A program made the translations under genes and the position numbers. A model generated the notes under the pieces. It was given only the letters and a program-made list of their open reading frames with translations, was not told the DNA's origin and did no database searches. Positions 17,158 to 26,760 of a stretch of DNA of 64,000 nt are shown piece by piece (the first letter of the stretch is position 1; each line of letters begins with the position of its first letter). Source of the DNA: a virus (taxonomy: Duplodnaviria > Heunggongvirae > Uroviricota > Caudoviricetes); IMG/VR virus record IMGVR_UViG_3300006204_000424, positions 22,382-86,381 of that record; one strand, written 5' to 3'.

Positions 17158-18288
17158 ATGAGTGAAACATATCTGGATCTGACACACAGTAATTTTCCAG
17201 AGCAAATGGATAAAATGTACGGCTGGCGAGACCCCTCCGCAAGCGAAGTGCCGCTGATTGCACAATATCAGTCCCTAATCGCGTCTGGGCAGGTTGTGAC
17301 TGCTGTTGAGTACCTGAACAGCCACCCTTCCTTAATGGACGTTATCATAAACGCCGACAAGCTGCTCCGCTTACAGCATGGACTGACTGCCGTACAGCGG
17401 TATTTTTACGATAATGTTCTGGATAAGATATACCGCCTTGGAAACATGAAAGGCGATTGGAACAGTCAAATGTCATCCGAAGCAGGCGGGCAGAACCGTT
17501 TGAATAAATTTGACGTAGTACGCTATCCCGTTGACGGCGTAAAACAGTATTTCCTCGTCATCGGTGAAGAAGTCCCTGCTGGTACACTGCCTACTGACGA
17601 AACTGTATATTTGCAGCTTTCCATGAAGGGCGACAAAGGCGATGCCGGTATTGACGGTGTTGACGGCGCACCTGGGCTTGGCATGTCGCCACAAGGCGCA
17701 TGGGTAAATAACAAGCAGTATCATCAATATGACATCGTTTCCCATGATGGATATCTCTGGTATGCCACGGAAGATAATGCATTGACGGAGCCGTCCGATG
17801 ACAATGCTGTGTGGCAGCGTGTACAGATTTCCATGCAGGTTACAACCAGCACAGAAAGGCCCGTAAATTTAGATGATGGTGGTCTGTGGCTGCACATGCA
17901 GGAAGATGGCCACGTTATACTGAAAACAAAAAACGAGAATGGCGAATACCGCACTGTTTATCCAGAAATACAGGCCGCATATGTTTTAGATGCCGCTGGA
18001 GAAAATTTGCAGCGGAAAATATACCGCCATTATTTTGAACGAGATGATGTAACCTCGCACTACAAAGAAAATGACAATATTTACACAGGCGAAGCGAAGC
18101 TGATCAGCAATCCCGCTGTTACTGTTGCTAAGTCTGTAATGACGGATACTTCTGATACAGACGGAAGGTATACGGAAGAATTTACCGTTTATGATGAAAC
18201 TGGCGTTTATATTGTATACAAAACAAAACGTGTTTTTACAGAAAATGAAGATGGAAGCTATGACTGCACGCCAGAAGTGATTGTGTAA
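17158..18288 (+). CDS. Tail fibre protein with collagen-like Gly-X-Y segment
   Basis: KGDKGDAGIDGVDGAPGLG collagen-like repeat, typical of phage fibres. Confidence 0.55.
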   Translation: MSETYLDLTHSNFPEQMDKMYGWRDPSASEVPLIAQYQSLIASGQVVTAVEYLNSHPSLMDVIINADKLLRLQHGLTAVQRYFYDNVLDKIYRLGNMKGDWNSQMSSEAGGQNRLNKFDVVRYPVDGVKQYFLVIGEEVPAGTLPTDETVYLQLSMKGDKGDAGIDGVDGAPGLGMSPQGAWVNNKQYHQYDIVSHDGYLWYATEDNALTEPSDDNAVWQRVQISMQVTTSTERPVNLDDGGLWLHMQEDGHVILKTKNENGEYRTVYPEIQAAYVLDAAGENLQRKIYRHYFERDDVTSHYKENDNIYTGEAKLISNPAVTVAKSVMTDTSDTDGRYTEEFTVYDETGVYIVYKTKRVFTENEDGSYDCTPEVIV

Positions 18289-18317
18289 AGAACACAGAGA
18301 GGAGCTGAAAGAGTATA

Positions 18318-18443
18318 ATGACAATGTTAGTAGAAAGTTTGAGAAGGCTTTATTCCAAAGGCGAAATTACGCTGGAACGTTTGGAAAGCATGATTGGCAA
18401 GTCAATTACGAACGAAGATTTTAGATATATCACGAAAGAATAA
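18318..18443 (+). CDS. XkdX-like small phage protein
   Basis: 41 aa with ...KSITNEDFRYITKE C-terminus (IT..E.y..IT pattern shared with the XkdX-like ORF at 23402). AGAGGAG RBS. Confidence 0.4.
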   Translation: MTMLVESLRRLYSKGEITLERLESMIGKSITNEDFRYITKE

Positions 18444-18485
18444 TTGCCCGATTGAAAGGGTTTTTTATATGCTAAGGAGGAAAAT

Positions 18486-18527
18486 ATGACTTATATTTTA
18501 GGTAGAAAAATTACCCCCCCCCCCTAA
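18486..18527 (+). promoter_or_regulatory. Leader ORF A (MTYILGRKITPPP*) containing an 11-nt poly-C tract (18514-18524) upstream of fibre gene A
   Basis: AAGGAGG RBS, ATG, ...ATT ACC CCC CCC CCC TAA. One of three paralogous cassettes (see findings). Confidence 0.5.
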
Positions 18528-18580
18528 AACATATCTGATTACTATGAATTTGGCGGTATCTCGATTGGAGGTGCTGCGGT

Positions 18581-19372
18581 ATGAATGGTGATTTTGATTT
18601 ATATGTTTTGAATGGGAAAATAAAAGAACTGAGGAAAAGCAACGAGCGGCAGGAAAATGGACTCGGACAGATAGAAGAAAATATTTCTATGATTGGTGAA
18701 AAAATGGAAAACTTATCTGTTGACGTTGATTTGAGCAGCTTAAACAGTACGATTGGGACTGGCTCATTTGCTTCATTAGATAAAATCATTAAAGATGGAA
18801 CTTCAAGTGTCTCTGCCCTTATCTCTGCTTTGAATGGCAAAATAAGTACAGTTTCTGGAGGTGTAAGAAAGTTTACCGCCGATGGAACATTTACCGTTCC
18901 GGCGAATGTAACTAAGATTTGGATTACCGCTTGCGCAGGCGGAGGATACGGAGAACGATATAAAGGCGGCGATGGCGGAGATTGGCTGTTCCGTGAGCCA
19001 TACTCTGTAACTCCGGGGCAAAAACTTACTATTACGGTTGGAAAAGGTGGAATTAGGGTAGGAGATATAGGAGGTTCCACCGTAATTTCCCCTTTGGTAA
19101 CGCTTACTTGTCCGGGACAAAGAGGGGGTATTGGTGGAGATAGTAATGCATATGAATCGCCTTTTGGTATAAATGGAACTGATGGATATGCTGGTGGAGG
19201 TCATGGCACAACTATCAAATCAGGAGAAGGTTTTTTGGCTAATCGCTATGGCGGCGGAGGAAGTTTAGGGAGAGGAGGAGGATATAAAGGTGGGACAAAT
19301 ATTGATCCTGGATATGGTGGCGGTGGCAGCAGCGGAAATGGCAGCGATGGCGTTGTCATTATCGAATGGTAA
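18581..19372 (+). CDS. Glycine-rich tail fibre / receptor-binding candidate (fibre A)
   Basis: GGAGGTG RBS. GGGYG, GGIGGD and GGGGS repeats. Confidence 0.5.
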   Translation: MNGDFDLYVLNGKIKELRKSNERQENGLGQIEENISMIGEKMENLSVDVDLSSLNSTIGTGSFASLDKIIKDGTSSVSALISALNGKISTVSGGVRKFTADGTFTVPANVTKIWITACAGGGYGERYKGGDGGDWLFREPYSVTPGQKLTITVGKGGIRVGDIGGSTVISPLVTLTCPGQRGGIGGDSNAYESPFGINGTDGYAGGGHGTTIKSGEGFLANRYGGGGSLGRGGGYKGGTNIDPGYGGGGSSGNGSDGVVIIEW

Positions 19373-19384
19373 GGAGGTGAACGC

Positions 19385-19726
19385 ATGACGTATGCAATGA
19401 TTTTACAGAATAAAGTAATCGATGTACTGCCGAATCAGGAAACCGAACCATGGTGGCCGCCAGACCCAGCAGGGAATCCGGTTACGGCGGTGCTTTGCGA
19501 TGATACGGTCAAGAAAGGAATGGAATATGAACCAGAAACAGGTGAGTTTTCCGAATACATACCGCCAGAACCAGAACCAGAGCCAATCCCAGAACCGACA
19601 CAGCTTGACCGCATCGAAGCAGCAATCAGTCAATCAAATACATACCTTTCTCAAACTTACTCCGAAATTGAAAATAGAATTATCGACAACTACACAATGT
19701 CTTTGGTCGAAAACAATATCATCTAA
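19385..19726 (+). CDS. XkdW-like protein (paralog 1)
   Basis: PEPEPEPIPEPTQLDRIEAAISQSN motif shared with the ORFs at 23059 and 24750. Confidence 0.5.
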   Translation: MTYAMILQNKVIDVLPNQETEPWWPPDPAGNPVTAVLCDDTVKKGMEYEPETGEFSEYIPPEPEPEPIPEPTQLDRIEAAISQSNTYLSQTYSEIENRIIDNYTMSLVENNII

Positions 19727-19768
19727 AAAATCACCATTCATACAAACAACTTTAAGGAGGAAATTTGT

Positions 19769-20080
19769 ATGAATACAGTTTATGACTTTGCTCAACAGCG
19801 CAAAGCAGAAAAAGAACGATTAAAAAAATTCGATATTACATTATCCGCAGATCATTGGTCTGATACCCTCCCCTACTCTCAGACTGTACAGGTTCAAGGG
19901 GTTACTGGAACAAATATCGTTTTTATAGCCCCTGAACCTGTACAGGAAAATATTGAAGGAGTTGGTGATTGCAAAATCATAGCAACTGAACAAACTACGA
20001 ATGCAATCACCTTCACAGCATTTGACGCAAAGCCTGATATTAACATTAACTTTCATGTTTTAGTTGGGGGTGAGGGTTAA
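19769..20080 (+). CDS. Hypothetical tail-associated protein, overlaps the next gene (ATGCC/TAATG)
   Basis: AAGGAGG RBS. 103 aa. Stop overlaps the start of the 20080 gene. Confidence 0.4.
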   Translation: MNTVYDFAQQRKAEKERLKKFDITLSADHWSDTLPYSQTVQVQGVTGTNIVFIAPEPVQENIEGVGDCKIIATEQTTNAITFTAFDAKPDININFHVLVGGEG

Positions 20081-21318
20081 TGCCAATTATCAATGAAACC
20101 ATTATCAGCGGTGTAAATGCCAAAAATGCTACCGCTACCAGCAAGGATATTCTGCAAGGTAAAACTGCTGTTGCAGGAAAAGAATTGATTACAGGTTCTA
20201 TGCCAGACAAAACTGGTCAAACGGTTAATGGCACATTCTATTCTGGCACTACTGGCTATATCACAGGCAAAATTGCTCAAGAGGGACATTATGCTACGAA
20301 TAGTAAATTAAAGATACCTGTATCTAATTTAACTGCCGGGAATATTAAAAAAGGTATTAATATAGGCGGAGTTGTAGGCACTCTTGAACCTATTCCATCA
20401 AATTTGTCTTTGTTTGCCGAATATTTTTCTCCTGCTAATAACGATTCTGAAATTGTAAATTTTAGTAATGGCAGTTTAGCCATACCCAATACATATTCGG
20501 ATCGTGGCGGTGTATGTTTAGTCAATGGCATCACTACAACTGTTAAATCTTTGGTAAATGGCTCTAACGTTAGACAGTTAGTAGGCGGAGGAACTAAAGC
20601 TATGATCAGAGGGAACTATGGAGCTTTTATATCTACTGACTCTGGTTCTATCTGGAAATCCCCCGTTGGCGTTAATATAACTTCTAGTACAAGTGCGGCA
20701 TTTATAAGGTTCAATGGCTCTAAATTTTATGTATGTATAGGTCTGAATTACACAACCCCACACTATGTTTCAAATACTGCCTGTACTTCTTTTTCTGTTG
20801 TTTCTATTCCATCAAATGATTATGAAGTTGGAAGTAGCACTGATGGTATTTGGTATGCTTATAATCATTCACTGGGCGGCATTTATTCCTCCAGTGATTT
20901 AATAAATTGGACAAAAAAATATACTCTCACAAGCAATGTAACAAATTTTATTAGTCTTTACAAACTAGGTTCTATTGTGTGTGCAACTTTTAATGGGCGC
21001 AGTCGTTCAGGTAGCAATAATACTTCTGCCACATATATCTCTTATGATAACGGACTGACATTTAGTGATAGTTTAAGTATCGGTATATCCTCGTCATATA
21101 CTCATCATAACCATATATTTACCCATAAAAATAATATATTTGTATATAGTTTTCATTCTTCTAAATTACCTCAGACAGTCTACAAAGTTGCCAATGGCAC
21201 AAAAACCATTATTAACTTACCAACAGTAAACTCAAAATACCCGAACATTATAGGTTCTAATGGAACATCATTAATTTTAGCTTATAATAATGGCGTTATT
21301 AGAACAATGTCAGTATAA
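20080..21318 (+). CDS. Receptor-binding protein candidate with BNR/Asp-box (sialidase-like) repeats
   Basis: Asp-box-like S-x-D-x-G-x-(T/S)-W/F motifs (STDSGSIWK, SYDNGLTFS) in the C-terminal half. Confidence 0.5.
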   Translation: MPIINETIISGVNAKNATATSKDILQGKTAVAGKELITGSMPDKTGQTVNGTFYSGTTGYITGKIAQEGHYATNSKLKIPVSNLTAGNIKKGINIGGVVGTLEPIPSNLSLFAEYFSPANNDSEIVNFSNGSLAIPNTYSDRGGVCLVNGITTTVKSLVNGSNVRQLVGGGTKAMIRGNYGAFISTDSGSIWKSPVGVNITSSTSAAFIRFNGSKFYVCIGLNYTTPHYVSNTACTSFSVVSIPSNDYEVGSSTDGIWYAYNHSLGGIYSSSDLINWTKKYTLTSNVTNFISLYKLGSIVCATFNGRSRSGSNNTSATYISYDNGLTFSDSLSIGISSSYTHHNHIFTHKNNIFVYSFHSSKLPQTVYKVANGTKTIINLPTVNSKYPNIIGSNGTSLILAYNNGVIRTMSV

Positions 21319-21403
21319 GATACTGATACTATTTTCTTTATAGTAGTATTTTACTTATACAATAATACGATAAAATCATACAAAACAGTGAGGTGAACAA
21401 CAA

Positions 21404-21976
21404 ATGGATTTATCTGAATTTATTATCAGCAAAATAGAAAATATCACCCCCACAGCTATTATTTTCTGCTGTATTCTTCTGTTCCTTATCATTAATTGGG
21501 TCATTTCAAAAAAAGATTTCTTCATTGATACATGGAACAAATTTTATGAACATCGCAAACGCAGGGAAGAATTTTTTCAAATGCTGATTGATGATCATAA
21601 ACGAATAAAAGAGTATGAAGAAAATCGTATCCATGACAGGGAGCAGTCTTTTCAGATTCAAAAACAGCTGATTGATGCCAATGCAAATCTGGCAGAAAAA
21701 CTTGAATCAATGTCCCAGAAAATTGACGCAAATCAAAAACTTACCGATGAGAGATTTGCCGCATCTGAGGAAAGCAGCAAACAGCGTATACGTGCCGAAT
21801 TGAAAGACAAGCTTCTCAGGGCATACAGACAGCATCATGCCGCCGCACACATTTCTTCTATGGAATTAGAGGCAATGTCAGAACTGATTGAAGTATACTC
21901 TCAAAATGGCGGCAATAGTTTTGTACATGAAATCATTGTTCCCGAAATGTATACTTGGGAAGTTGTAGATGAATAA
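21404..21976 (+). CDS. Membrane-anchored coiled-coil protein
   Basis: N-terminal TM segment AIIFCCILLFLIINWVI, then charged coiled-coil. Confidence 0.4.
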   Translation: MDLSEFIISKIENITPTAIIFCCILLFLIINWVISKKDFFIDTWNKFYEHRKRREEFFQMLIDDHKRIKEYEENRIHDREQSFQIQKQLIDANANLAEKLESMSQKIDANQKLTDERFAASEESSKQRIRAELKDKLLRAYRQHHAAAHISSMELEAMSELIEVYSQNGGNSFVHEIIVPEMYTWEVVDE

Positions 21977-21990
21977 TCCGAGGTGGTAAA

Positions 21991-22332
21991 ATGGCTGCCA
22001 AAAATAAAACTGCCCATGCCACAAAAAAGGCTGCAAAACAAAAAGTACAGACATCAAAACTCATAGTATACTCAAGCCTTGCCCTGTCGTGGGCTTTTAT
22101 TATTTTTATTTGCTATGAGATGCACAGGCTATGTGATTTAAGTCCTGTTGCTGTCATAGGAACATCAATTGTAGGAATGATTGCGGCTACAAATGCGGCT
22201 TATATGTGGAGGGCAAAGCAGGAGGATTATTTAAGGCTTGAGTTAGAAAAAATAAAACGGCTCTCTGAAATGAAGAAAAAATATGGAGATGATTTCATTT
22301 CAGAGGAATTACACGAGGTAAATATGAACTAA
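21991..22332 (+). CDS. Small two-TM membrane protein with Lys-rich N-terminus
   Basis: AKNKTAHATKKAAKQK followed by two hydrophobic helices. Confidence 0.4.
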   Translation: MAAKNKTAHATKKAAKQKVQTSKLIVYSSLALSWAFIIFICYEMHRLCDLSPVAVIGTSIVGMIAATNAAYMWRAKQEDYLRLELEKIKRLSEMKKKYGDDFISEELHEVNMN

Positions 22333-22348
22333 ATGAAAGGAGCATTTC

Positions 22349-22399
22349 ATGGAATATTTGTTAAATAAAACTACCCCCCCCCCCGAAAATTTGAACTAA
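22349..22399 (+). promoter_or_regulatory. Leader ORF B (MEYLLNKTTPPPENLN*) containing an 11-nt poly-C tract (22374-22384) upstream of fibre gene B
   Basis: AAAGGAG RBS plus ATG. Poly-C encodes PPP. Paralogous to leaders A and C. Confidence 0.5.
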
Positions 22400-22457
22400 A
22401 TCAATGCGTACTTCAGACGATTTATTGTGGATATTTTCGAAAGAAGGTGTCCGCATA

Positions 22458-23057
22458 ATGATGGATTGGAATTATTTAATTTTAGGCAGAATCAAGAAAA
22501 TTTTAAACTCCATTTCTTCTATACAGAATCTGCTGTCTTCTACACAGAAGCTGATTGGTACAACAACAGACATAGGCGGGAGCCAGACGGCAGGGACGGT
22601 GTTTGGTAAGGAAAATGCGATACTGGAAACGTTGAAAGAACAGAATGCAAAAATCTTTACAAGTATGGTATGGAAGCAGACTGCAAAAAAGGCCGTGACA
22701 ACCGCTATGAGCGGAGTGAAAATATTGAGTTTTTCTTTTGAAAGTCCGGTTAAATTCAGAGCAATAAACATTGAAGGTACTATAGATTTAGGACAATTTG
22801 CTTCGGCGTATTTTATTAACGGAGAAAGCTCATTCACAGCGTTAGCGTCTATTGCCAGTTCTACTGCTAGATATATGATAGCCGTTGACGGTGGTTCCCG
22901 TAACCGCTTTTTACTTAAAACAAGTTTTGGAGAACGCGAAAATATTTTACAGGACATTTGGATAACACAGATAGATATTCATTTCCCTGCTGTTGCTGCG
23001 GATAAAGTTTCAACATACAATGGCTACGTAGAATATCAGGAAGGGCAGGCGGGATAA
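22458..23057 (+). CDS. Short tail fibre / receptor-binding candidate (fibre B)
   Basis: N-terminus MMDWNYLILGRIKKILNS is paralogous to fibre C (MISDWNTVILSKVKNILGK). Conserved upstream TTCGAAAGAAGGTGT element. Start moved from the track ATG 22404 to 22458 by this homology. Confidence 0.5.
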   Translation: MMDWNYLILGRIKKILNSISSIQNLLSSTQKLIGTTTDIGGSQTAGTVFGKENAILETLKEQNAKIFTSMVWKQTAKKAVTTAMSGVKILSFSFESPVKFRAINIEGTIDLGQFASAYFINGESSFTALASIASSTARYMIAVDGGSRNRFLLKTSFGERENILQDIWITQIDIHFPAVAADKVSTYNGYVEYQEGQAG

Positions 23058-23058
23058 A

Positions 23059-23370
23059 ATGCTGTTATATTTGGATGAAAACCGGAAAATCATTGATAAC
23101 AACTATGTAATCAGCCATGCCAGCGCATTAAAGATAATGGCAGAAAATCCCCTTGCGGAATGGCACGATATTGATTTTTCCTTTGCAATGGGCGAAAACA
23201 GGGCTGGATATGATAAAGTCTTTTATCTGGAAACGGATGGGATGATTCGGATTGAGTATGAGGAAATACCACCCGAACCAGCCCCGCCCCTTTCCGAACA
23301 GGAGCAGATTGCCATTGACACGGCGTTGAATGTGGAATACATTGCCTGCCTGATGGAGGCAAATTTATAA
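23059..23370 (+). CDS. XkdW-like protein (paralog 2)
   Basis: About 100 aa. EEIPPEPAPPLSEQEQIAIDTALN motif. Located between the fibre and the XkdX-like ORF as in PBSX-type late regions. Confidence 0.55.
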   Translation: MLLYLDENRKIIDNNYVISHASALKIMAENPLAEWHDIDFSFAMGENRAGYDKVFYLETDGMIRIEYEEIPPEPAPPLSEQEQIAIDTALNVEYIACLMEANL

Positions 23371-23401
23371 CGACTTTGAAATAATATGAGGAGGAATTTT
23401 C

Positions 23402-23542
23402 ATGATTTACACACTGCTGAAAAACAAAATCACACGGGGTACATACGACAGGGAGGATTTGAAAAACAAGATGGACACATACCTGCTGTTCGGACGCATC
23501 ACGGAGGAACAGTATACGGAACTGACGGGGCTGATGGCATGA
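23402..23542 (+). CDS. XkdX-like small phage protein
   Basis: 46 aa MIYTLLKNKITRGTYDREDLKNKMDTYLLFGRITEEQYTELTGLMA. GAGGAGG RBS. Sits immediately before the holin. Confidence 0.5.
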   Translation: MIYTLLKNKITRGTYDREDLKNKMDTYLLFGRITEEQYTELTGLMA

Positions 23543-23614
23543 TTACGATACATGAAAAGTGTTAATATTTCAACATAATCAGGAGTTTAACTGAAATATA
23601 TAAGGAGGAAAATT

Positions 23615-23980
23615 ATGACAGATATTACGATAATTTTAGAAACAATTATTAAGTTGGCTTGTTTGGTGTTTTTGCTTTTTGTAATCCCCTGTTTGAAAAC
23701 CGCTGGGGCAAATAACAAACTGCTGGCGGCATTAAAGGTCTCTGATGAAATTGCAAAAATTGCAGGTATTGTTGTACGTTCTGCAAACGAACTTGAAATC
23801 ACAGGAGACCTTCTAAAACTTGGAATTACAAAGGCTGATTATGCTATGGAACAGGTCAAAAAAGAACTTGAAAGCAGAGGAATTACTTTTAATGAAGATT
23901 TGATTGTAAAATATATCAAAGCCGCCGTGACAGAACTGCGGGTTGAAATTGCGAATACCCCCGCTGAAAAGGAAAACTAA
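23615..23980 (+). CDS. Phage holin
   Basis: 121 aa with N-terminal TM helix LACLVFLLFVIPCL and a charged C-terminal tail. Upstream of the endolysin. Confidence 0.6.
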   Translation: MTDITIILETIIKLACLVFLLFVIPCLKTAGANNKLLAALKVSDEIAKIAGIVVRSANELEITGDLLKLGITKADYAMEQVKKELESRGITFNEDLIVKYIKAAVTELRVEIANTPAEKEN

Positions 23981-24048
23981 ATAACTTTATTTGAGCAGGG
24001 TAAACCACCCTGCTCTATTCATTTCATACAAAAATGAGGAGGAATTCT

Positions 24049-24096
24049 ATGTATTTATTTGTTAGTAAAATCACCCCCCCCCCCCCGAAAATTTAA
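24049..24096 (+). promoter_or_regulatory. Leader ORF C (MYLFVSKITPPPPKI*) containing a 13-nt poly-C tract (24074-24086) upstream of fibre gene C
   Basis: GAGGAGG RBS plus ATG. Paralogous to leader B. Confidence 0.5.
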
Positions 24097-24156
24097 CCTA
24101 AAAACAAGACTTATTCCAGCCAGATTTTGTAAGTATTTTCGAAAGAAGGTGTTTGC

Positions 24157-24726
24157 ATGATTTCGGATTGGAATACAGTTATTTTGAGTAAGGTAAAAAA
24201 TATATTAGGTAAGATTACAGAACAAAGCAATAAAATAGATGCTGCCAGTTCTATTGCAGAAAATATCCATACAAAGATTGATACGTTGGATGAAAATATA
24301 AATGGAATTAAAACTACATCTGATTCTATCAGTTCAAGCGTGTCAAGTCTTGGTACAATCAATTCAAACGTTTCCTCTGTGAAAAATACCGTTTCAAGCA
24401 TGTCTTCTACGCTGTCTACGGTAAATACTAATGTGAAGAATTTAATGAATAGCGGGAATAGTGTGGTAAAGAGTGTACAGAGGGGAATCGTTAGTAGCAG
24501 TAGAACAATAACTATTTCGACTGTTAATTTATCTAAAAGTATTATTATTACATCTGGCGACGGCCCCGCTGCTTTTTTTGTTAGTAGTAATAGTAGTCTT
24601 TATGGCTCATATGGTCTGGGACGATTCGAAAGCAGTACCCAAATATTTATTAATGTTGCACGTGGAAGTTATGGGGGAAGTTCGTATAGTGCTCAAGTAG
24701 CCTGGCAAGTTATTGAATTTTATTGA
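24157..24726 (+). CDS. Short tail fibre / receptor-binding candidate (fibre C), located between holin and endolysin
   Basis: N-terminal paralogy to fibre B. Ser/Thr/Asn-rich repeats. Confidence 0.5.
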   Translation: MISDWNTVILSKVKNILGKITEQSNKIDAASSIAENIHTKIDTLDENINGIKTTSDSISSSVSSLGTINSNVSSVKNTVSSMSSTLSTVNTNVKNLMNSGNSVVKSVQRGIVSSSRTITISTVNLSKSIIITSGDGPAAFFVSSNSSLYGSYGLGRFESSTQIFINVARGSYGGSSYSAQVAWQVIEFY

Positions 24727-24749: not shown

Positions 24750-25052
24750 ATGTCTTTTATTTATGCACAAATTGATGAAAATAATATCTGCTGCGCTGTT
24801 TCTAATCTTTCTGGTGAAATATTCGATACACATTTAATCCCTATTCAAACATTCGACACAACCATGATTGGGAAGAAATTTTCAGATGGTCACTGGCTGG
24901 AAGTGCCAAAATCAGAAATGGGAGAAACCATAGCTCCTGAACCCACACAGCTTGACCGCATTGAAGCTGCCATAAATATGAAAAATAATGAAATTTCAGA
25001 AAGGGCAATTGATACATACACAAAGCAACTGTTGGAAAACGGTTTACTTTAA
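24750..25052 (+). CDS. XkdW-like protein (paralog 3)
   Basis: ETIAPEPTQLDRIEAAINMKNNE motif, nearly identical to the one at 19385. GGAGGTG RBS at ATG 24750. Confidence 0.5.
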   Translation: MSFIYAQIDENNICCAVSNLSGEIFDTHLIPIQTFDTTMIGKKFSDGHWLEVPKSEMGETIAPEPTQLDRIEAAINMKNNEISERAIDTYTKQLLENGLL

Positions 25053-25110
25053 CCTTATACTTCCCTGCCCTTCATCGGGTAGGGATTTTTTTACGAAATG
25101 AGGTGACAAA

Positions 25111-25743
25111 TTGTCAAAGAAAATGACAGGCAAAGAATTAGTGGCATTTGCAAGGTCTAAAATTGGAACACCTTATGTTTATGGTGCAAAGGGTGAGGTT
25201 TTAACAAAAGAAAAATATGACTGGCTGAAAAAACAATATGGTTCCTTGGTTTGGGACAGCGATAAGAAAAAAATCGGAAAGGTTTGTGTGGACTGCTCAG
25301 GACTGCTCTCTTGGGCTTGTGGTGTTGTTTTAGGCTCTAGTCAGTGGAATAGTCATGCTGATGTGAAAAAGCCGATACAAAGCATCTCAGAGGCTCCTAT
25401 GGGGGCTTTGGTCTGGTGTAAAGGACACATTGGCGTTTACAGTGGTTTGAAGAATGGAGTCCCTTGCTATATCGCAGCAGATGGATCAGCATATGGTGTG
25501 CGGGAAGTGCCATTGAGCCAGAATAAGTTCACACATTGGCTGCTTGTCCATGATTTTTTCGAGTATGAGGAGGACGAAATGGTAGAAAGAGATATGATTG
25601 TTGTAAATGATACAGAATATAGTGTTGATATGATTCGGAAAGATGGGACTACGTTTATTAAAACCAGGGATATTGCTGATATTCTAGGAATGAAGGTATC
25701 GAGTAATGGGAGGATTCCTGTGTTGGAGAGTGGGAAGAAGTGA
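25111..25743 (+). CDS. NlpC/P60 (CHAP-like) cell-wall peptidase, endolysin
   Basis: Catalytic Cys context CVDCSGL and His context KGHIGVYSG. End of the lysis cassette. Confidence 0.65.
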   Translation: MSKKMTGKELVAFARSKIGTPYVYGAKGEVLTKEKYDWLKKQYGSLVWDSDKKKIGKVCVDCSGLLSWACGVVLGSSQWNSHADVKKPIQSISEAPMGALVWCKGHIGVYSGLKNGVPCYIAADGSAYGVREVPLSQNKFTHWLLVHDFFEYEEDEMVERDMIVVNDTEYSVDMIRKDGTTFIKTRDIADILGMKVSSNGRIPVLESGKK

Positions 25744-26131: not shown

Positions 26132-26350
26132 ATGCGTCCAAAAAAGAAGTTATCCAAGATGAAAGGGGATGTTTATATGCGGACTATAACTGATTCTCAT
26201 ATGAATGATTTGAAAAAACGCGCATCTCAAAGACGCATCCTTTTCCCCAATCAAAAAAACTCAGAAGATGTAAAACTAGAAAATGATTTTTTTGAAGATG
26301 TAAAGAATAAAATGTATGAACAAATTTCGGAGGATGAAAAATGGAATTGA
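26132..26350 (+). CDS. Putative antitoxin partner of the MazF-like toxin
   Basis: 72-aa ORF overlapping the toxin start by 10 nt. Basic N-terminus. Confidence 0.4.
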   Translation: MRPKKKLSKMKGDVYMRTITDSHMNDLKKRASQRRILFPNQKNSEDVKLENDFFEDVKNKMYEQISEDEKWN

Positions 26351-26760
26351 AACGTGGGGAAATATATTATATAACTTTTCCATATACCCTTGATCCAAAG
26401 TATCCTAATGGTAAACCTAAATTTGTATTGGTATTACAAGAGGGCGAATACTTTGCAAAATATAACACGGTTGAAATAATGCTTATTACTTCTGATAAGC
26501 AATATAAGCCTAGAGAAAAATATGCTACTGATGTAGAAATAGAAGTGGGGACAACAAAACTTAAAGATAAATCATGGGTTCTTTGTTCACAACCTTATCC
26601 AATTGAAAAGAAGTTATTTGAGCAATCTGGCGTATGGTGTGCGGGGATGTTATCTGCCGAAAAAATGGATGAAATCGATGAAGCTACTTATATTGGATTA
26701 TGTATGGGGTTACAGCATGAACTTGCACTTGAACCAGCAGATGAAGATTCTGATAATTGA
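26341..26760 (+). CDS. MazF/PemK-family mRNA interferase toxin
   Basis: RGEIYYITFPY...GKPKFVLVLQEG...VEIMLITSDKQ...KSWVLCSQPYPIEKK matches the MazF/PemK fold motif order. Confidence 0.65.
   Translation: MELKRGEIYYITFPYTLDPKYPNGKPKFVLVLQEGEYFAKYNTVEIMLITSDKQYKPREKYATDVEIEVGTTKLKDKSWVLCSQPYPIEKKLFEQSGVWCAGMLSAEKMDEIDEATYIGLCMGLQHELALEPADEDSDN

Follow-up and report, generated by a model that had tools for sequence, protein, structure and literature searches.

Poly-C tracts in short upstream reading frames of a prophage as candidate contingency loci coupled to receptor-binding cassettes

The window analysed here is a stretch of 64,000 nucleotides (nt) from the tailed-phage record IMGVR_UViG_3300006204_000424 (positions 22,382 to 86,381). 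It contains three poly-C tracts (A, B and C) of 11, 11 and 13 residues, each located in a short open reading frame (ORF) ahead of a fibre-like gene. Runs of C9 are matched 11 times in the window, overlaps included, for an expectation of 0.05. What is the function of such tracts in front of three fibre genes? An earlier note on this DNA, based on the letters alone, had considered a phase-variable switch, a one-base miscall of all tracts or programmed frameshifting, and took the short ORFs for a family of polyproline leader peptides. We propose, with a probability of roughly 0.6, that the tracts are contingency loci acting at the DNA level, situated in upstream ORFs (uORFs) that are translationally coupled to cassettes of receptor-binding proteins (RBPs).

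Leader frames and predicted sequestration of the fibre starts

Each tract lies 8-9 codons from the start of a short ORF that has a good Shine-Dalgarno (SD) sequence (ATG at 18486, 22349 and 24049), 56-73 nt ahead of the fibre start. The leaders were translated exactly at tract lengths C9 to C14. Leaders B and C give products of 35-36 amino acids (aa) at C9 or C12 only, namely MEYLLNKTTPPPRKFELNQCVLQTIYCGYFRKKVSA for B and MYLFVSKITPPPRKFNLKTRLIPARFCKYFRKKVFA for C, each followed by a stop. This is in agreement with the earlier note, which had the extended frames of both leaders depend on C12; C9 serves equally. At C10 or C13 both leaders end in ...TPPP(P)KI and a stop (the KI frame), and at C11 or C14 in ...TPPP(P)ENL(N/T) and a stop. 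The long frame of leader A, which that claim did not cover, requires a different length class, C10 or C13, and not C12. As sequenced, leaders B and C stop after 16 and 15 aa, and all three leaders of the window are in a short frame. Tract length sets the leader frame, with products of 13-17 aa versus 34-36 aa, which is the frame change expected of a contingency locus. The tracts (C11, C11, C13) also have the length expected of one, about 8 nt or more and able to slip.

The long frame is distinguished by the position of its stop. It runs for ~25 codons past the tract and terminates on the fibre start, in a TAATG in leader B and an ATGA in leaders C and C', the latter being a diverged paralogue of leader C found in other assemblies. 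In leader A, counted from the first base of the fibre A ATG, the long-frame stop ends 10 nt further on. Such an overlap or abutment of stop and start, as seen in coupled genes, occurs in the long frame only. The other two frames stop 0-15 nt after the tract, which leaves 43-64 nt to the fibre start. The stop of the KI frame is kept at the same position by different codons, TGA in B, TAA in C and TAG in C'. The fibre ORFs remain intact at every tract length, as the tracts are located in separate upstream ORFs.

In cassette B, the KI frame is also the frame of fibre B. An ATG at 22404, 9 nt past the KI stop, would add 18 aa (22404-22457), and the resulting 217-aa form of fibre B is called by some gene callers. 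This extension lacks an SD sequence and is probably incidental.

RNA folding of all leaders predicts a hairpin that holds the SD sequence of the fibre gene in its 3' arm. The arms and loops are UGUGGAUAUUUUC-GAAA-GAAGGUGUCCGCA in leader B, UGUAAGUAUUUUC-GAAA-GAAGGUGUUUGCA in leader C and GCGGUAUCUC-GAUUG-GAGGUGCUGC in leader A, the last being unrelated in sequence and of the same design. The hairpin of C' has a predicted energy of -16.9 kcal/mol. Short-frame stops fall at least 27 nt before the hairpin. In an ungapped alignment of six hairpin variants, 78 of 78 cells pair (100%), compared with 36-68% in slid-alignment controls. Two of the pairs are fully compensatory (AU to GC, with GG/CC in B facing AA/UU in C) and two more are wobble-compatible. 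Because these compensatory changes alter the putative peptide (Gly to Lys, Ser to Phe), selection at the conserved block appears to act on the RNA. No structure was found directly 3' of the tract in these foldings, and a search of window positions 18300-24300 against Rfam matched no family.

Predicted accessibility points in the same direction. The three fibre start regions rank 3rd to 5th least accessible among the 28 start regions of the prophage (hypergeometric p=0.004). Both starts that are less accessible abut or closely follow a preceding ORF, one of them overlapping it by an ATGA; a third start coupled by overlap comes just above the fibre starts in rank. The start regions of the leaders themselves are predicted to be open. 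The fibre SD and start are therefore predicted to be buried in a structure inside the upstream ORF, the arrangement of sequestered initiation.

A mechanism can be proposed from the elements that are observed directly (the tracts, frames, stop/start overlaps, hairpins with compensatory changes and the length polymorphism between assemblies described below). Tract length would change by slipped-strand mispairing during replication. In the long-frame class, a ribosome would translate through the hairpin, melt it and terminate on the fibre start, allowing initiation or re-initiation there (ON). In the other two length classes, the ribosome would stop before the hairpin and the SD would stay closed (OFF or low). 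Opening the SD hairpin and bringing a terminating ribosome to the fibre start would both require translation of the long frame. The long form is probably a translated frame, given the overlap of its stop with the fibre start and the predicted hairpin around the fibre SD, which translation of this frame would open. The view that it is a genuine coding frame is thereby retained on architectural grounds; peptide conservation, the reason first given for it, fails (see below). Three independent switches could produce up to eight fibre repertoires, and thus a mixed phage population that hedges its bets on host range. On this anatomy, dependence of fibre translation on the long frame, switching in a clonal population and an effect on host range would be expected, and our confidence in the coupling mechanism is moderate.

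The same frames and the same tract variation would also fit a switch at the DNA level that works by transcriptional polarity, Rho or an RNase acting on untranslated RNA so that the fibre mRNA is lost and the hairpin is secondary. The terminator-like hairpins on either side of cassette C suggest that transcription is regulated there. However, the 43-64 nt between early stop and fibre start are short for Rho loading, and polarity requires neither an SD hairpin with compensatory changes nor exact stop/start overlaps, both of which are predicted by coupling. We therefore consider polarity an unlikely explanation.

Tract length among prophage copies and the competing readings

Copies of the prophage were retrieved via identical neighbouring proteins from 22 independent samples, one of which is labelled mouse gut. 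They provide 39 tract observations across 22 assemblies, from several assemblers and several data sources. Over more than 100 nt, the flanks show no or almost no differences. The tracts range from C9 to C13 (also in C'), and the contigs L018, L021 and L023 start inside a tract. This length polymorphism, together with the contig breaks, is as expected of a contingency locus. Polymorphism extends to the base immediately 5' of the tract (A, G or C). All three frames are represented among the natural copies. The long frame is found in 10 of the 39 observations (A 4/10, B 1/14, C 2/11, C' 3/4), and samples in which several tracts could be read have none or one in the long frame. We are highly confident that these tracts exist and that their length varies. 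The length pattern fits hypermutable tracts, which may switch within a clone. Of the explanations offered in the earlier note, the phase-variable ON/OFF switch gains support from these data; copies of the locus do carry C-tracts of variable length, a point that the note had asked to be checked.

One low-coverage contig of assembly ERZ1755884 (L051:6008-6021 / L115:2936-3424) has the sequence upstream of tract B replaced. Here a 162-aa ORF with a weak HTH_3 match continues through C14 in the long frame as far as the fibre B start. Either the locus was truly rearranged at the tract, or poly-C k-mers led the assembly to join a chimera.

Several points weigh against the proposed switch. Leaders B and C are found in the long frame less often than in either other frame. 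A strong SD precedes every fibre gene itself, so that some initiation independent of the leader is likely. Hairpin C is weaker than the others (-9.6 kcal/mol), and the covariation comes from three independent lineages (B, C and C'); a metagenome scan for the hairpin with the "DW" start pattern led back to this prophage, chance matches apart, and added no further diverged leaders. An open long frame occurs in 45-75% of dinucleotide shuffles and is, by itself, not beyond chance; shuffles that combine it with stops of both other frames within 20 nt make up 8-15%. The existence of one open frame was accordingly dropped as evidence, this shuffle test not being significant. Assembly consensus can be wrong for long homopolymers, and the coupling is deduced from anatomy.

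The state of the leaders could instead be set at the RNA or ribosome level. CCC-C runs favour +1 shifts, and B and C are most often found in the KI frame (8/14 and 7/11), from which exactly one +1 shift leads to the long frame. Slippage by the ribosome, or by RNA polymerase, would then fix a low ratio of long-frame product, with the DNA length variation being incidental. Programmed sites, however, keep a fixed slippery sequence, while tract length differs here between nearly all pairs of assemblies. There is also no stimulatory element after the tract, and all three frames occur naturally. The fixed slippery sequence and conserved downstream stimulator of a programmed ribosomal frameshift are thus both missing, and we judge such a fixed ratio to be improbable. 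What survives of the frameshifting considered in the earlier note is spontaneous +1 slippage: within the proposed DNA-level switch, ribosomal slippage on CCC-C or polymerase slippage may leave the OFF states leaky.

The peptides themselves offer a further explanation, a functional family of polyproline leaders, for instance EF-P-dependent arrest peptides, conserved as protein. PPP is present in every frame, and the long forms of B and C do align, as had been noted, with 18 of 36 residues in common, including the RKF and YFRKKV shared by B, C and C'. The earlier claim that this conservation exists at the protein level in spite of DNA divergence does not hold. The leaders of B and C are 70% identical as DNA, and all 18 common residues are encoded by identical codons, with zero synonymous differences. 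Nucleotide differences fall evenly on the three codon positions, with counts of 9/10/14 for B-C, 13/13/13 for B-C' and 7/6/2 for C-C'. The region after the tract looks just as conserved in the other two frames (12-13 of 24 residues alike), and leaders C and C' differ at 11 of 36 residues, the changes being non-conservative. No purifying selection on the amino-acid sequence of the leaders is apparent from these comparisons. The conserved peptide end, C.YFRKKV(S/F)A, coincides exactly with the hairpin and SD, whose compensatory changes alter residues as described above. Judged by these alignments, the apparent conservation of the small peptides stems from the RNA hairpin and not from the peptides. 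A profile search of 5.8 billion proteins with the long leaders retrieved no homologous leader peptides from other lineages. It matched P0006 and P0007 only, which are long forms called as proteins in two other samples and both belong to this prophage lineage; the analogous leaders seen in other phages show no sequence relationship to those of the prophage. For these reasons, it is very improbable that the leaders form a peptide family whose sequence is conserved for its function.

It is just as hard to sustain that errors in sequencing or assembly produced the length differences around constant tracts giving the long form: homopolymers above 10 nt are error-prone and many contigs have low coverage (e.g. 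cov 2-8), but five length values, up to 4 nt apart, were obtained from the 22 samples irrespective of assembler and data source, the polymorphism just 5' of the tract is real variation at the tract border, and a miscall of all tracts by one base, as suggested in the earlier note, fails on the differing corrections that the window would need (B +1, C -1, A -1 or +2). As regards phase variation of a promoter spacer, a scan for sigma-70-like sites, which does not extend to phage late promoters of other types, showed none that spans a tract.

Recurrence in unrelated phages and known systems

An unbiased scan of viral contigs for TA-C11-G, together with earlier scans, revealed the same design with sense-strand tracts of G9-G11 in about seven unrelated phage contigs (L009, L013, L027, L143, L153/L184/L215 with two different leaders, L182 and L193). 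An SD-ATG is followed by 7-11 codons and the tract, and one frame of 27-41 aa ends in an ATGA or within a few nt of the downstream start. The downstream gene encodes 105-781 aa, and its SD is covered by an anti-SD (CCUC) or a hairpin. L027 has its tract in the tail of the chaperone-like gene. Several of the downstream proteins are tail proteins by their PHROG matches: one is a tail collar fibre (phrog_523, 1e-33), one a tail fibre and one a glycine-rich minor tail protein. No PHROG match was obtained for three others. Outside this prophage, the longest frame of 14 of 38 tract-bearing short ORFs ends at the SD-plus-start of an ORF of at least 80 aa. This compares with 4/76 for the other two frames of the same ORFs (p=3e-5) and 72/774 for tract-free short ORFs (p=9e-6).

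These contigs may represent a wider class, in which the tract would lie in a uORF of 10-40 codons or in the tail of the preceding gene and one frame would end on the start of an RBP with a sequestered SD. The RBP coding sequence would never be damaged, and several cassettes could be toggled independently. That uORF-coupled contingency switches form a widespread and so far undescribed regulatory class in tailed phages is a tentative proposal, to which we give slightly less than even odds.

Homologous leaders with G9 or G11 at the same sites are found in L153 (721-731 and 1648-1658), L184 (6329-6337 and 7238-7248, both on the minus strand) and L215 (12638-12648, minus strand). A 1-nt indel after the tract shifts their long frame to a different length class, and none is in the long frame as assembled. 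Relatives of the prophage with 62-67% baseplate identity (L026-L033) are mostly without tracts; the G9 of L027, at the corresponding position, is the sole exception. No match came from a BLAST search of the region in 50,697 GenBank phages, nor from scans of genome contigs with the chaperone alignment and with the baseplate protein.

The first scan retrieved the motif A-C10-GAAAATTT (AAATTTTC-G10-TA on the other strand) in seven viral contexts (L004-L015; window 22374-22392 and 24074-24094). A T precedes the A, unforced, in all seven. The flank A-Cn-GAAAATTT was rejected as a general requirement, since the 107 contexts of the unbiased scan had heterogeneous flanks and GAAAAT occurred in two of them; the excess of the motif is modest. 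The 18-mer TATTTTCGAAAGAAGGTG was likewise set aside; in viral contigs it returned three chance ribosome-binding-site contexts only, with no tracts. In a family of viral contigs (L006, L008, L010-L012 and L014; e.g. L006:5022-5031), the G10 falls in the part of a DNA methyltransferase gene that encodes the N-terminus, in the frame ...KIFGGGVTQKVDLLLTDPPYG, and these contigs may encode a phase-variable phage methyltransferase. In L004 (5226-5235), a G10 located 17 nt after an SD-ATG truncates the product after 9 aa. G11 would join this ATG in frame to a 1035-aa secreted protein with a signal peptide, the classical type with the tract in the coding region.

Phage contingency loci with the tract inside the regulated gene are known already; new here are the tract in a separate uORF and the intact RBP ORF. 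Hypermutable polyG tracts in RBP genes have been described in the Campylobacter Fletchervirus (Sorensen et al. 2021, Cell Rep 35:109214; via PMC12823448 and bioRxiv 10.1101/2025.10.21.683753). In those accounts, phage homopolymers of ~7-13 nt control receptor-binding proteins and produce subpopulations with different fibres, as is proposed for the prophage. The accounts place the tract inside the RBP coding sequence, in lytic phages whose host itself uses polyG. The present phage is temperate, with three cassettes, each with its tract in a separate uORF of 13-36 aa and with proposed coupling through an SD hairpin; OFF states with a truncated RBP, as in the Fletchervirus type, do not occur. In T2 and T4, reversible frameshifts take place at short homopolymers as bet-hedging, in runs of 6 nt or more inside ordinary genes, repeats being under-represented in tail-fibre genes (Gomez, Barrick, Waters 2025, bioRxiv 10.1101/2025.10.21.683753). 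That study describes no leader-ORF or coupling design, unlike the one proposed here (bioRxiv 10.1101/2025.10.21.683753). Reversible homopolymer frameshifts in phage genomes, with bet-hedging as their role, would be common to both.

Other phages exchange their receptor-binding proteins by G-segment inversion, as in Mu, or by diversity-generating retroelements, e.g. in BPP-1 (PMC12823448). These host-range switches, as presented in that source, also yield stochastic alternative receptor-binding proteins within one phage lineage. They depend on a recombinase or a reverse transcriptase, whereas the present design would need no dedicated enzyme and each cassette would be independent.

Bacteria use such tracts for phase variation, for example in the pilC/opa genes of Neisseria, the polyG genes of Campylobacter and the poly-C promoters of Bordetella fim. 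Slipped-strand mispairing at G/C runs and the ON/OFF control of surface structures would be common features. The tract of the bacterial cases is located in the regulated gene or in a promoter spacer, and here in an independent uORF. Coupling through structured initiation is known from the coat-to-replicase/lysis regions of the RNA phage MS2 and from ATGA gene pairs, and control of SD hairpins by a leader ORF from ermC and cat. An upstream stop at the downstream start is shared with these systems, as would be an SD hairpin opened by upstream translation. Their input is constitutive translation or drug-induced stalling, and in the prophage it would be a heritable and reversible change of DNA frame. 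No description of a uORF-coupled phase switch was found in the searchable literature.

If the proposed switch is correct, a temperate gut phage can toggle each of three receptor-binding modules through slippage in tiny uORFs, leaving their coding sequences untouched. The range of phage contingency loci, so far lytic Campylobacter and T-even phages, would thereby take in prophages of gut bacteria; the coupling logic would be new, and the design would be one that recurs in unrelated uncultivated phages. Gene callers and host-range predictors would then misjudge such fibres, assemblies would break at the tract sites, and phage preparations may be phenotypically mixed by design.

Cassette layout and neighbouring genes

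The plus strand of the window from ~3.9 to 25.7 kb is the tail, fibre and lysis region of the prophage (Table 1). Each fibre gene is followed by a chaperone-like ORF of 100-113 aa.

Table 1. Features of the prophage region, in coordinates of the window
Feature	Position	Strand	Remarks
DUF5048 baseplate protein		+	prophage tail region
Tail-fibre protein	17158-18288	+	
Leader ORF A, as sequenced	18486-18527	+	C11: MTYILGRKITPPP, then stop; long form 34-35 aa at C10 or C13
Poly-C tract A	18514-18524	+	C11 in window; C9-C11 in other assemblies
Hairpin A	18553-18577	+	10 bp, -16.1 kcal/mol
Fibre A SD, GGAGGTG	18567-18573	+	mostly in 3' arm of hairpin A; first G in loop
Fibre/receptor-binding protein A	18581-19372	+	Gly_rich_2 domain; matches to PHROG tail-fibre families
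Small chaperone-like ORF after fibre A	19385-19726	+	
Leader ORF B, as sequenced	22349-22399	+	C11: MEYLLNKTTPPPENLN, then stop; long form 35-36 aa at C9 or C12
Poly-C tract B	22374-22384	+	C11 in window; C10-C13 elsewhere; C14 in one anomalous contig
Hairpin B	22426-22455	+	13 bp, GAAA loop, -16.9 kcal/mol; codes for C.YFRKKVSA
Fibre B SD, GAAGGTG	22443-22449	+	within 3' arm of hairpin B
Fibre/RBP B	22458-23057	+	
Chaperone-like ORF B	23059-23370	+	103 aa
XkdX-like ORF	23402-23542	+	46 aa; after chaperone-like ORF B
LL-H holin	23615-23980	+	
Terminator-like hairpin	23993-24015	+	directly upstream of leader C; 9 bp, 6 GC pairs
Leader ORF C, as sequenced	24049-24096	+	C13: MYLFVSKITPPPPKI, then stop; long form at C9 or C12
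Poly-C tract C	24074-24086	+	C13 in window; C9-C13 elsewhere
Hairpin C	24128-24157	+	13 bp, GAAA loop, -9.6 kcal/mol
Fibre C SD	24145-24151	+	in 3' arm of hairpin C, together with A of start codon
Fibre/RBP C	24157-24726	+	189 aa; N-terminal part coiled-coil
Chaperone-like ORF C	24750-25052	+	
Terminator-like hairpin	25062-25085	+	after chaperone-like ORF C; 9 bp, 6 GC pairs

A different, siphovirus-like prophage encodes a 363-aa BppU_N protein whose C-terminal head shares 96% identity with residues 33-199 of fibre B; the BppU_N gene is followed there by an identical 103-aa ORF and the 46-aa XkdX-like ORF. Identical chaperone-like B and XkdX-like ORFs accompany Sipho_tail, BppU_N and Prophage_tail genes in six contigs (L037, L038, L040, L041, L043 and L045), a prophage type with no poly-C tract. 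Comparison of these proteins indicates that the module of RBP head, chaperone and XkdX-like ORF was recently exchanged between phage types. Because the head of fibre B and the ORFs that follow it are shared with a different prophage type, the fibre cassettes are exchangeable receptor-binding modules.

Cassette C (leader, fibre and chaperone), bracketed by the two terminator-like hairpins, resembles an insulated moron-like module between holin and lysin. The window has no tRNA genes. A toxin of the PemK/MazF type (26341-26760) is located at the prophage end, with a small ORF overlapping its upstream side (26132-26760 together). Beyond the toxin, host genes (OCD_Mu_crystall, SSF transporter) lie on the opposite strand. 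In some prophage copies, a gene for a 332-aa protein resembling GIY-YIG/NUMOD1 homing endonucleases is inserted after chaperone C (L016:6946-7944, L018:1027-2025, L019:1560-2558), and in these same copies a Peptidase_C39_2 lysin replaces the gene found at 25111-25743 of the window.

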